NCBI GenBank assembly: GCA_964016885.1
Contig: OZ024741.1
Span: 2,728,001 to 2,792,000, forward strand
Direction of reading: 5' to 3'
Origin: Eledone cirrhosa
Lineage: Eukaryota
Length of the DNA stretch: 64,000 nucleotides
This document shows positions 319 to 51,058 of the stretch, one piece after another. The notes under the pieces are model-generated. The model ran no database searches. It was not told the origin of the DNA and saw only the letters and a list, made by a program, of their open reading frames with translations. How positions within the stretch are numbered: position 1 is the first letter of the stretch; the number at the start of each line of letters is the position of its first letter. Both the position numbers and the translations under genes were made by a program.

Positions 319-486
319 AACAATTAGTATATCTACCAACATATGTATACAGATGCATACCTATGCTACCAAATATATAGGTTTTGTCTTAGTAACTTTG
401 TAGTTCAATGCAAGGGGATGCAGAACAATTATATGAAAGACGTAAAATAAGAGAATTATGAAAATTAACTTACTTACTGAAATTTC

Positions 487-567
487 ACTCCAACTAATTA
501 GTTTCTGTAAGGGAATAAATATCGTTACGTAACGTAATCATAGAGAATCCTTACGTCATCAGGGAGT
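487..567 (-). ncRNA. Type I hammerhead ribozyme motif (inverted copy)
   Basis: Reverse complement of the 1091-1171 motif. Confidence 0.75.
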
Positions 568-1090
568 CTATTCTCAGCTAAGTTACTAGGCAATGCGTGG
601 ACACAGGGAACTCATATAAAAATAATTCAGTGGATGAAAAAAAGCGAGCGGGGACTAAATTCCAGGACATTGAAAAAACTCACTGCCTACTTGGTCAGTG
701 GCAAATTCAAAAGAATCAATCACGTGACACTGAGGTTAATCAGTGAGGAGTGGGATGCTAATAAGACAGGTATGTATCTGTATACATATGTTGGTAGATA
801 TACTAATTCTTTATAATTATCTCCAAATTATTTGTTGAGTAAAAATTTGCCGAAATTACTACTATGGTTCATGGTAGTGGTCAGGCCCCTGTCTTATTAG
901 CATCCCACTCCTCACTGATTAACCTCAGTGTCACGTGATTGATTCTTTTGAATTTGCCACTGACCAAGTAGGCAGTGAATTTTTTCAATGTCCTGGAATT
1001 TAGTTCCCGCTCGCTTTTTTCTATCCACTGAATTATTTTTATATGAGTTCCCTGTGTCCACGCATTGCCTAGGAACTTAGCTGAGAATAG

Positions 1091-1171
1091 ACTCCCTGAT
1101 GACGTAAGGATTCTCTATGATTACGTTACGTAACCATATTTATTCCCTTACAGAAACTAATTAGTTGGAGT
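1091..1171 (+). ncRNA. Type I hammerhead ribozyme motif
   Basis: Stem I ACTCC/GGAGT; CTGATGA; stem II GTAAGG/CCTTAC with long loop; GAAA; palindromic stem III AACTAATTAGTT; GUU triplet. Confidence 0.8.
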
Positions 1172-1618
1172 GAAATTTTAGTAAGTAAGTTAATTTTCAT
1201 AATTCTCTTATTTTACGTCTTTCATATAATTGTTCTGCATCCCCTTGCATTGAACTACAAAGTTACTAAGACAAAACCTATATATTTGGTAGCATAAGTA
1301 TGCATCTGTATACATATGTTGGTAGATATACTAATTCTTTATAATTATCTCCAAATTATTTGTTGAGTAAAAATTTGCCGAAATTACTACTATGGTTCAT
1401 GGTAGTGGTCAGGCCCCTGTCTTATTAGCATCCCACTCCTCACTGATTAACCTCATCGTCACGTGATTGATTCTTTTGAATTTGCCACTGACAAAGTAGG
1501 CAGTGAATTTTTTCAATGTCCTGGAATTTAGTCCCCGCTCGCTATTTTCCATCCACTGAATTATTTTTATATGAGTTCCCTGTGTCCACGCATTGCCTAG
1601 GAACTTAGCTGAGAATAG

Positions 1619-1700
1619 ACTCCCTGATGACGTAAGGATTCTCTATGATTACGTTACGTAACCATATTTATTCCCTTACAGAAACTCTATTAGTTGGAGT
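1619..1700 (+). ncRNA. Type I hammerhead ribozyme motif (second tandem copy, stem III mutated)
   Basis: Same as 1091-1171 but with GAAACTCTATTAGTT. Confidence 0.7.
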
Positions 1701-2787
1701 GAAATTTTAGTAAGTAAGTTAATTTTCATAATTCTCTTATTTTACGTCTTTCATATATATATATATATATATATATATATATATAATATTAAGGATACTA
1801 TTTATAGTTATGTATATTTTAAGCTATAAACAGGGAAGATCAGTAATTTATTACTACCTTATTACCAGTAAGATAAATAGCTCAATGTAAGAACATCAGT
1901 TGTTCTACAGAGCAGTTATATAGAATTCACAAGAATCAAAGCTATGTACAAATCATTTATTCACTTACAATTGTTTCATCCAAACCTAGGCTTGGAGTCT
2001 TCGGAGTATTTTTCAATGCTTGTACATATAATTGACCTCCTATCCAACGCAAGAGACATACAGATACATATATATATATTGATGTACAATGGAGTGACAT
2101 ATATTATACTATACTATATTTGTATAGCAAATCAAATTTAAAATCAAAATTAAAACTAAAATACATGCGGCAGATATCACAGATAATGCAAGAGGATAGT
2201 TCGATAATCAGATCTAGTAGATAGTGTATGCGTTAGTCATACATGGAGCATGCAAGTGTGTCTAATTTATATACGAGTATTGTGTGGCAAGTTATTACAT
2301 GTAATACAAGCACTGTAAGCAAGAATATTATGGCGTCATCGTACAAACCACCTAATCAATTCTGTAACCTCTGTCTACTAGAGACCCATACTATAATCTT
2401 TTCGAGCCTTAACCTCCTTAATAAAAAATCGGAAGTGTTTGCGTCGTGCCAGCACCGCTTCCGACACTCCTTCCAAAGCTTTAAACCTAATATATAACAA
2501 TGTCAGATTTGAACCCATCACCGCTTCTAACACCGCACCTCAAGGGCTTGCCTTCCACCACTACACCACACTCTCTGATCCACCCTTTCCTCGACACAAA
2601 TCATCCTATCTATCTATAACTTTATACCCTAGAAATATCCCCATAAACACCAACTTTTAATATAATTACTTTTAATTACTTATAATTATATAGGGATTGA
2701 AATATAATACATTTTATATAAACTTTAAATACTAGATACAACAATGAATTATATATGCATCTGTAATTAAATGTATAGAGTAATAAC

Positions 2788-48956: not shown

Positions 48957-49223
48957 ATAAGTAAATAAAATTAAATAAAATAAGATAAATAAATACATAC
49001 ACAAGCACATAAACACACACTAGTCACCCAGCAGACACAACACTATACACACTAGTCACACATCACACATAACACTATACACACACGCAAACGCATGCGC
49101 AAAGAAGACAAAATAAAATAAGATAAACAAACAAGCAAATAAATAAATAAATATATAGACAGACTGAACAAAAAAAAATGGCGTAGACATACAACACAAC
49201 AGGAGGAACAATGAATATAACAC

Positions 49224-49262
49224 CACTGACGATGTTGCAGATGTGCAACGAAAGATTTATGT
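49224..49262 (+). ncRNA. Minimal hammerhead-like motif in the pLTR (inverted copy ~44368-44405)
   Basis: CTGACGA-T-GTTGCA-GATG-TGCAAC-GAAA-GATT-TA; stem I only ~2 bp. Confidence 0.55.
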
Positions 49263-49748
49263 AAACTATGTAAACTATATATATGTGTTTGTGTCTATAT
49301 TGTATCTGTATTATTTTTGAACGCCGGTCAGTCAATGGCAACATTGAGGACCGAGTAAGTTAGATCGCAGATATATATATATAAAAGACAGCGAGAAGCG
49401 AAAACCAACCAAACAGTGAGTGTGTTCTGTTATTAATTCTGGCAATATTACGCAAATATGACCCTCCCCAAATATAACAATATATATATATATATATATA
49501 TATATATATATATATATATATATATATATATATATATATATACATATACATATATATATATATATATATATATATATATATATATATATATATATATATA
49601 TATATATATATACATATATATATATATATATATATATATATATATATATATATATATATATATAAGTAGTTCCACAACATATATATATATATATATATAT
49701 ACATATATATATGTACATATATATATATATATATATATATATGTGTGT

Positions 49749-50018
49749 GGAGGCATGTAGCCTAGTGGTAAGAGTGTTGGACTTACGATCATAATGTCGT
49801 GGGTTCGATTCCTGTGCCGCGTGTTGTGTTCTTGAGCAAAACACTTCATTTGACGTTGCTCCAGTATACTCAGCTGAAAATGAGTACCAGCAATAGCTGG
49901 AGGTTTAACCTTGCGATGGACTGGCGTCCTGTCCAGGGGGAGTCTTGTACTCTGAGTCGATTCACGGCATGAAACCGGTATAAGCACAAATGAGCCTTCT
50001 GGCTTAAGACAGACTTTA
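49749..50018 (+). mobile_element. tRNA-derived SINE (second family), full length
   Basis: A box TAGCCTAGTGG, B box GGTTCGATTCC, CTTGAGCAAAACAC, GCGATGGACTGGCGTCCTGTCCAGGG. Confidence 0.9.
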
Positions 50019-50042
50019 GAATTTTATATATATATATATATA

Positions 50043-51058
50043 TAAACGGAAAAAATGAAACGAAATTTCATTTCCCACTCTTAGTACGGCTGTTACTTAA
50101 ATATAAGTATGTATACGTACATACATATATGTATACAGACGTACAGTAGTATGTATATATATATATATATACACATGCACACATATATATATGTACGTAT
50201 TGATTCACCAAACATTTATTATAATGCTCGGTGGGTTTGTAAACAAACATCCCGTATTAAGCCGTGGTGTCTAGCAACCACCGTTGCTCGTTTGTTCAAC
50301 ACTGACAAAGGAACGCTGTACTAGTTTCAAGCTTGTTAGCTATCGTCAGCAAGTATACCTTCCTGCTAGATAGTTGAACGTCCGAAAGTATATACTTTCC
50401 TTATGCATATTAACGGCTGAGTAGCCCAATTTGCATATCAAATGGGTTAATCGGTTGCTAGACACTACGGCTTAATACGGGATGTTTGTTTACAAACACA
50501 CCGAGCATTAAAATAAATGTTTGGTGAATCCATACGTACATATATATATGTATGTATATATATATACATACTACTGTATGTCTGTATACATATAGGTATG
50601 TACGTATACATACTTATATTCAAGTAACAGCCGTACTAAGAGTGGGAATTGAAATTTCGTTTCATTTTTTCCGTTTATCGTTTTCGGTGCACCCGGCCGA
50701 TTAACCCACTCGATATGCAAATTGGGCTACTCAGCCGTTAATATGCATAAGGAAAGTATATACTTTCGGACGTTCAACTATCTGGCAGGAAGGTATACGT
50801 TGCTGACGATAGCTAACAAGCTTGAAACTAGTACAGCGTTCCTTTGTCAGTGTTGAACAAACGAGCAACGGTGGTTGCTAGACACTACGGCTTAATACGG
50901 ATGTTTGTTTACAAACACACCGAGCATTATAATAAATGTTTGGTGAATCCATACGTACATATATATATGTGTGCATGTATGTATATATATATATATATAT
51001 ATATACATACTACTGTACGTCTGTATACATATATGTATGTACGTATACATACTTATAT
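50043..51058 (+). mobile_element. Non-coding retrozyme-like array: 420-bp unit, ~1.4 tandem copies (50453-51058) preceded by an inverted copy (50043-50454)
   Basis: GGTTGCTAGACACTACGG at 50453 and 50873; left part is the reverse complement; hammerheads on both strands. Confidence 0.85.
50797..50839 (+). ncRNA. Canonical minimal type I hammerhead (inverted copy 50313-50354)
   Basis: ACGTTG-CTGACGA-T-AGCT-AACA-AGCT-T-GAAA-CTAG-TA-CAGCGT; palindromic ACTAGT stem III. Confidence 0.85.

Follow-up and report, generated by a model that had tools for sequence, protein, structure and literature searches.

The stretch of DNA analysed here, called the window throughout, comprises 64,000 nucleotides of the genome of Eledone cirrhosa (3.0 Gb) and corresponds to positions 2,728,001 to 2,792,000 of the forward strand of contig OZ024741.1 (GenBank assembly GCA_964016885.1). 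It contains 21 copies of the hammerhead ribozyme, tallied with family-specific motifs, which belong to 11 families labelled A to K in this analysis. The original prediction, made on the same DNA, described about ten unrelated ribozyme families carried in fold-back units around a single Penelope driver. Mobilization by Penelope-like elements (PLEs) into (TA)n tracts was borne out, as was the presence of non-coding retrozymes (families A, H and K), but the arrangement of about ten families around one driver was not. Very probably, the window holds eleven independent insertions: seven are truncated PLE ends, three are retrozymes that were likely copied in trans, and family C, probably also a PLE end, is counted in neither group.

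A type I core was found at all 14 of the hammerhead positions that had been named, and the copies carry C(U)GANGA, GAAA and NUH elements, or the U3-A8 variant of the core, together with stems I-III. A descriptor scan of the window gave seven matches when stem I and stem II were each set to at least 4 (mean 0.23, maximum 2, in 30 block-wise dinucleotide shuffles of the window) and 14 matches when at least 3 sufficed (shuffle mean 1.57, maximum 5; n = 30). One of these 14 relaxed matches, the core at 43109, was dropped as a separate family and is an alternative register within H. The descriptor missed C, G, the B copy at 4142 and the right arm of I, for all of which visual inspection and comparison with genomic copies gave confirmation. 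An Rfam scan of the window returned 129 matches, nearly all of them microsatellite-driven miRNA, and its sole hammerhead match (HH9, 43393-43468, 22.2 bits) lies below the gathering score of 52. Stem III in these hammerheads measures 1-2 bp and is closed by a near-palindromic loop, and stem I of J has just 2 bp. Stem I of C is mutated in the window copy, and the CGGAAGA core of D is a private mutation of the window copy (CTGAAGA in 26 of 33 collected copies). The U3-A8 core is fixed in E (19 of 30 copies, the others unparsed) and in H (20 of 23), and CCGAAGA is kept in 17 of 23 copies of B.

The flanks had been described as mostly unrelated, and all-against-all BLAST of the 11 units agreed, giving only four matches of 14-25 nt. 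The inverted-repeat setting was also confirmed: in ten of the 11 units two arms form an inverted pair, and in C an inverted tail is followed by a direct copy. The interval 42.0-51.1 kb holds 12 of the 21 hammerheads, and the window has 11 exact matches to five family patterns where 0.84 would be expected in 64 kb, which makes it a hot spot.

Genomic copies were collected by a similarity search of the same genome with each unit (about 40 candidates scored and 10-15 loci kept per search, with upstream walks added). Copy numbers are exact hammerhead-pattern counts only, the similarity candidates being unusable for counting (36 for the 3′ end of J vs 10,933 exact matches genome-wide, with 0 for the reversed-pattern control). 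Seven families (B, D, E, F, G, I and J) are plain 3′ ends of seven different autonomous PLEs, as shown by longer genomic copies that carry coding sequence for reverse transcriptase (RT) and/or a GIY-YIG endonuclease (EN) upstream. With coding sequence upstream in the longer copies, these seven do not qualify as the non-coding units expected of retrozymes. They show partial tandems that form pseudo-long terminal repeats (pLTRs), an inverted 5′-truncated copy and a one-sided tail, as expected of EN+ PLEs. The outcome that the original prediction had named as damaging to itself, namely that the units are plain PLE 3′ ends, holds for seven of the 11 units, and a single Penelope driver is contradicted by seven families that each have RT and/or GIY-YIG coding sequence of their own.

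Family B (1800..4224) consists of an inverted arm at 1800-2320 (-) and a direct arm at 2329-4224 (+), with CCGAAGA cores at 2004(-) and 4142(+) and a repeat insert at ~2787-2977. GIY-YIG coding sequence lies upstream in L024/L129 and also in the direct arm of the window itself, where the final codons of the endonuclease occupy 2329-2494. Family D (33830..34303), the 3′ pLTR of a J-related PLE, has an inverted arm at ~33830-34050 and its mutated core at 34114, and J-like RT/EN sequence (~55-69% identity) is found upstream in L068, L072-074, L138 and L139. The 3′ pLTR of E forms a head-to-head pair (34440..34806) with U3-A8 cores at 34541(-) and 34620(+); L132 carries a 496-aa RT+GIY-YIG frame (Pfam GIY-YIG 8.6e-07), and in L080/L133 a pLTR is followed by the start of the open reading frame (ORF). 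The pLTR of F, a full-length element elsewhere, is likewise present as a head-to-head pair (42111..42562; cores 42210(-) and 42375(+)) with a tail of ~90 nt on the right arm. In L180 the order is pLTR, ORF, 3′ untranslated region (UTR), pLTR, spanning ~4.3 kb including a 1.6-kb 3′ UTR, and the exact F hammerhead occurs 1,753 times genome-wide (reversed-pattern control 0). The head-to-head pairs of G (42704..42961; cores 42853(-) and 42872(+)) and I (43617..43908; cores 43738(-) and 43844(+)) are linked to Hydra-type coding sequence in L183 and L186 and in L112/L135, respectively.

The most complete element is J, which in the window is a 5′-truncated autonomous PLE (44091..49480) with an inverted arm at 44091-45704 (-), a direct part at 45705-49480 (+) and cores at 44403(-) and 49226(+). 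Its open RT and C-terminal GIY-YIG frame, which includes an Asn-rich insert, runs to 48956; truncation at 45705 removed the 5′ pLTR and ~135 N-terminal residues. Intact 1,216-aa frames are found in 4.15-kb tandems, and an uninterrupted full frame was seen only in J (L214), the frames of the other PLE families being recovered piecewise. The 5′ part of J is 99-100% identical in all 40 scored copies. The J ORF begins 189 nt past the predicted cut, and both preferred 3′ ends fall within the ORF. Pfam gave no match for the whole frame and only weak RT or GIY-YIG matches for parts; the closest named relative of the Penelope protein of the window is from Octopus vulgaris (72% identity). The Asn-rich in-frame insert lies in the N-terminal part (window ~45966-46550), and a tail-only J fragment without a hammerhead adjoins (TA)n at 14055-14204.

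The clades were assigned by motifs, those of the Hydra clade following the definition of Craig et al. (2021, PMC8557442) and the spacing in Neptune and Nematis being judged by eye vs Fig. S2 of the same paper. A CxCX5C linker and the lack of CCHH characterize B, F, G and I (one G copy has a changed linker C). CxxC/CxH around a conserved E/N is present in B, F and I, and in G only the CxxC is cleanly readable; the N-terminal motifs are RWR and DKT in F and RWK and DKT in G, the N-termini of B and I not having been recovered. The linker is long and of the CX4CxxC form in E and short in D and J, and all three have CCHH in the C-terminal GIY-YIG. On these motifs, B, F, G and I are Hydra-type; E would be Neptune-type, and D and J Nematis-like. 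A further high-copy Hydra-type PLE (L310-L339; 150 of 150 scored matches at 89-100% identity) was noted, with a ~1-kb 3′ UTR and a distinct hammerhead of its own. Upstream of the hammerheads, the ends of D, J and I contain AAGATGGCG- and GCGCATGCG-like motifs (34055-34063, 49177-49187, 49093-49101 and 43780-43788), which we take to be YY1- and NRF1-like. These motifs are possible pLTR promoters.

Family C (32511..32780 (-)) is an old hammerhead-bearing 3′ end (32511-32671, core 32642) that follows an inverted duplicate of its tail. A monomer of ~290 bp was considered and rejected, the first ~110 bp being the inverted tail. Longer copies contain several hundred further non-coding bases upstream, and no tandem was found. 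In 25 upstream-selected and 30 other loci, where the copies are old and interrupted, no RT/EN ORF could be linked to C over 1.5 kb of the same strand. Only 9 of 31 C ends adjoin TA repeats, TC/CA repeats being favoured. C is probably the end of a Hydra-type PLE.

The three remaining families have the sequence organization of non-coding tandem retrozymes. A (315..1757) comprises an inverted arm at 315-770 (-) and a partial tandem at 770-1757 (+), with cores at 562(-), 1096(+) and 1624(+) and predicted cuts after 492, 1166 and 1695. H (42962..43595) is a head-to-head pair with a U3-A8 core at 43410(+), a predicted cut after 43446 and a mirror copy (-). K (50042..51066) has an inverted arm at 50042-50454 (-) and a partial tandem at 50453-51066 (+), with cores at 50349(-) and 50803(+) and a predicted cut after 50833. 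The non-coding monomers measure 521-542 bp in A (528 bp in the window), 319 bp in H and 420-500 bp in K (~430 bp in the window); their longest ATG-initiated ORF is 40-60 aa and their GC content 33-39%. At least two consecutive hammerhead units were found in each family: dimers and trimers of A, a trimer of H (L032), and arrays of up to 5-6 units of K (L341, L342). Exact hammerhead matches genome-wide number 1,093 for A, 191 for H and 25,215 for K (reversed-pattern controls 0). Diverged H-like units of ~75% identity (L039 2635-2831, with a U3-A8 core, and L224 5935-6195) are an older relative of retrozyme H.

All three retrozyme monomers fold far better than shuffles (z -4.8, -8.2 and -6.6). 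The original prediction had proposed covariation among genomic copies as a check, and compensatory stem changes were indeed found in A and K. In A, 96.9% of cells are paired in 28 copies (the window copy and 27 of 30 pattern loci; slid controls 27-43%), and two pairs changed on both sides, in 15 cells, a result reached in 0 of 500 shuffles. In K, 96.9% of cells are paired in 20 distinct copies, and one stem I pair occurs as GU, AU, UG and CG. The hammerhead structure of A and K has been kept by compensatory changes. Two read runs (X1, X2) were considered as expression evidence and set aside, as their coverage of unique intergenic DNA is even (~5x) and free of mismatches, so that they behave as DNA.

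It could be argued that A, H and K are no exception and that every one of the eleven units is a pLTR of an autonomous PLE, the tandems resulting from local amplification of solo pLTRs. Seven of the 11 were recognised as PLE ends only after upstream walking, the few loci sampled per search (12-30) leave room for such an origin, and the A hammerhead resembles by eye the published Hydra-clade hammerheads in the supplement of PMC8557442. Nevertheless, what lies upstream of an A, H or K unit is a preceding unit, at dispersed sites on many chromosomes, and the units end at the same two fixed offsets. No same-strand PLE ORF runs into a unit as its own pLTR at any of 30 A-pattern loci or 20 K-pattern regions. 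On this balance, the explanation is considered unlikely, and A, H and K are treated below as retrozymes.

The ends of the insertions are informative about how they arose. As had been claimed, they accumulate in (TA)n: 273 of 338 terminal ends abut TA repeats vs 13.5% of random positions. All 11 families have two preferred 3′ ends (a bimodal distribution), a long and a short class. Among 65 head-to-head pairs, 53 join a long and a short end, one joins two short ends, none joins two long ends and 11 have an off-class end, so that the long-short rule holds in 53 of 54 classifiable pairs; within the 28 pairs of A, H and K it holds in 18 of 19 classifiable ones. The preferred ends, taken as RT start sites, are found downstream of the predicted cut at a distance of 30-280 nt, and copies nonetheless extend back across the cut. 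The points of the fold-back junctions vary from copy to copy. The fold-backs are ordinary PLE head-to-head insertions and not a property of the RNA unit, and the long-short pairing of the retrozymes is a direct genomic sign of insertion by PLE machinery.

This geometry also bears on the idea that A, H and K were moved by a long interspersed nuclear element (LINE) or by DNA-level rolling-circle amplification, the hammerheads having stopped cutting and being carried along as passengers. LINE fragments that we take to be RTE-, L1/Tx1- and R4-like abound in the window. In addition, insertion of the Anolis element in vitro does not depend on hammerhead cleavage (PMC11167929). The copies inspected have no poly(A) tails, however, their long and short head-to-head pairs and (TA)n targeting match those of PLEs in the same genome, and conservation of the cores and stems is accompanied by compensatory changes, which together make this origin highly improbable.

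Junctions between families are rare: 135 head-to-head junctions are same-family and 2 mixed-family, and mixed-family head-to-tail junctions number 4, with L340 in addition. L073 was rejected as a mixed-family junction, being a nested insertion. In L303 (G000:C1:56406424-56409483), an inverted K fragment is followed by A and then by K at 1247-2125; the joints lack microsatellite or TA sequence, A stops at a non-standard point, and the case is a single one. In L340 (G000:C1:18483000-18492999), each of the two arms has K joined head to head with a fragment of a Hydra-type endonuclease; this junction, again a single case, sits inside a larger nested inverted duplication (4072-10000). L306 and L039 are single cases only. 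The L303 chimera could be a template switch that reveals a shared driver, and, as it and the L340 junction hint, one driver may serve several unrelated retrozymes. The L310-L339 family was rejected as a driver candidate, as it carries its own, different hammerhead.

A mechanism consistent with these observations can be outlined. The GIY-YIG endonuclease would nick both strands of a (TA)n tract, and the RT would initiate a pair of cDNAs from two fixed internal positions that lie downstream of where the ribozyme cuts. Head-to-head joining of the two 5′-truncated cDNAs would account for the fold-back as well as for a tail on one side only. Since copies extend over the predicted cut site, either a circle or a multimeric RNA left uncut would have served as template. 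With a stem III of 1-2 bp and a near-palindromic loop, the hammerheads are predicted to release unit-length RNA from tandem transcripts mainly by acting as dimers or when assisted by protein. Retrozymes A, H and K would use the PLE machinery in trans, and fresh (TA)n flanks would draw further insertions, which would account for the cluster at 42-51 kb. Several of these steps have precedents: a PLE protein nicks both strands of AT-rich DNA, the tail being set by two internal RT start sites (PMC11167929), and PLE insertions contain inverted 5′-truncated copies with a one-sided tail (PMC8557442, PMC3846280). The more specific proposal, in which A, H and K exist as abundant circular RNAs and owe their insertion to a PLE RT priming two cDNAs at two fixed sites, is put forward tentatively, at somewhat less than an even chance.

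Several points weigh against this reading. Arkhipova (2013, PMC3846280) favoured self-priming on an antisense template for the inversions. Minimal PLE hammerheads cleave poorly in vitro (PMC4209133), cleavage of Xenopus retrozyme dimers was obtained in 1 of 9 and in none of the other 8 (bioRxiv 10.64898/2026.07.22.740005), and many of the single-hammerhead folds here are no more stable than shuffles. The search pattern fixed the core and stem II of A, whose double changes fall in the extension of stem II, and kinship among copies inflates the covariation counts. Loci were picked by likeness to the query, and the long and short end classes were defined once the histogram was known. Moreover, screening of 360 sequences turned up neither a sequence parent nor a driver for A, H or K.

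The arrangement favoured by the original prediction, about ten retrozyme families driven by J with the fold-back RNA as the functional unit, draws on the youth and abundance of J (10,933 exact matches), which might provide A, H or K with RT in trans, and on a 25-nt 3′ stretch common to D and J, but it is already refuted for seven families and scarcely credible as a whole, since B, E, F, G and I possess their own ORFs, the Hydra-type proteins are essentially unalignable with that of J, and the fold-back junction points differ between copies.

The rest of the window is also rich in repeats. Satellite arrays occupy 8471-10975 (29 bp, 86 copies), 41157-41617 (31 bp, 15 copies) and 4738-4944 (23 bp, 9 copies). 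Two adjacent LINE copies, 76% identical and with endonuclease and RT frames, lie at 19526-30763 and are presumably L1/Tx1-like. Duplicated LINE fragments with RT frames, one of them with C-terminal C2H2 fingers, are found at 35762-39198 and 53631-63279, and we assume these to be RTE- and R4/Dong-like. A dispersed repeat of ~190 bp that resembles a short interspersed nuclear element occurs at 2769-2973, 6254-6625, 31430-31825, 35261-35438 and 41759-41895, forming an inverted pair at 31430-31825.

Compared with known systems, the one described here consists of new families of already known kinds of mobile elements; the comparisons refer to the available portions of the cited papers. The PLEs B, F, G and I resemble the Hydra clade of Craig et al. 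(2021, PMC8557442) in the CxCX5C linker, the lack of CCHH, the hammerhead in the pLTR and the (TA)n targets. Further likenesses are CxxC/CxH (B, F and I) and, in F and G, RWK/RWR and DKT. Hydra-1_Obim of Octopus bimaculoides, in the supplement of the same paper, also has a hammerhead and a preference for (TA)n; here at least four Hydra-type families occur in one genome, plus the L310-L339 family. The differences are that F reaches ~4.3 kb with a 1.6-kb 3′ UTR vs the <3 kb usual in the Hydra clade (a tendency and not a strict criterion), that tails measure 65-150 nt vs 30-40 bp, and that B has the CCGAAGA core in 17 of 23 copies (PMC8557442). By eye, the long CX4CxxC linker of E resembles that of Neptune and the short linker of D and J that of Nematis, and CCHH is common to D, E and J (Craig et al., 2021, Fig. 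S2, PMC8557442). The Asn-rich insert of J recalls those of the Adineta Penelopes (PMC3846280). In O. vulgaris, 31 recently active Penelope-like families have been listed, and the word ribozyme is absent from the available text (PMC13282606).

With the minimal PLE hammerheads (Cervera and de la Pena, 2014, PMC4209133) and the Anolis Poseidon element PAc (Frangieh, 2024, PMC11167929), the present ones share a helix III that is short or palindromic, one additional base following A9, U3-A8 variants, opposite-strand pairs 100-700 bp apart and two RT start sites downstream of the ribozyme. PAc is also like J in that the ends fall inside the ORF; in contrast to PAc, the two-start-site signature is tallied here over 11 families, including non-coding ones (PMC11167929). 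Neither octopod retrozymes, nor these families, nor counts of end pairing in retrozymes were found in the titles and abstract openings of the literature searched; Repbase, Dfam, subscription papers and preprint supplements may hold them.

Coral, mussel and axolotl are known to contain retrozymes, and PLEs have been suggested to drive them (PMC7229834). A, H and K resemble the metazoan non-LTR retrozymes (Cervera and de la Pena, 2020, PMC7229834; Li, Clavereau and Pollet, bioRxiv 10.64898/2026.07.22.740005) in having a hammerhead in each non-coding tandem unit, GC content below 45%, dimers to multimers, highly self-paired monomers and coexisting PLEs. At 528 bp and 420-500 bp, respectively, A and K are longer than is typical of invertebrate retrozymes (170-400 nt) and are within the 51-972 bp of Li et al., and H differs from the known metazoan retrozymes in its U3-A8 core. 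What this analysis adds is the end-pairing signature in non-coding units, together with the very high copy number of K. With young, high-copy autonomous and non-autonomous families side by side, the mobiliser and template of retrozymes become directly testable; as a warning, a short palindrome with a hammerhead will usually turn out to be a PLE stump in such genomes. A 2026 preprint argued from co-occurrence and pLTR homology that retrozymes derive from PLEs as non-autonomous forms (bioRxiv 10.64898/2026.07.22.740005). The earlier link was drawn from those two lines, whereas the one drawn here comes from insertion geometry: the paired long and short ends are a sequence-only signature that ties retrozymes to PLE chemistry with no need for homology. 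If a PLE RT does prime at two fixed sites, the long-short rule would be the first insertion-level evidence of PLE-driven retrozyme mobilization.

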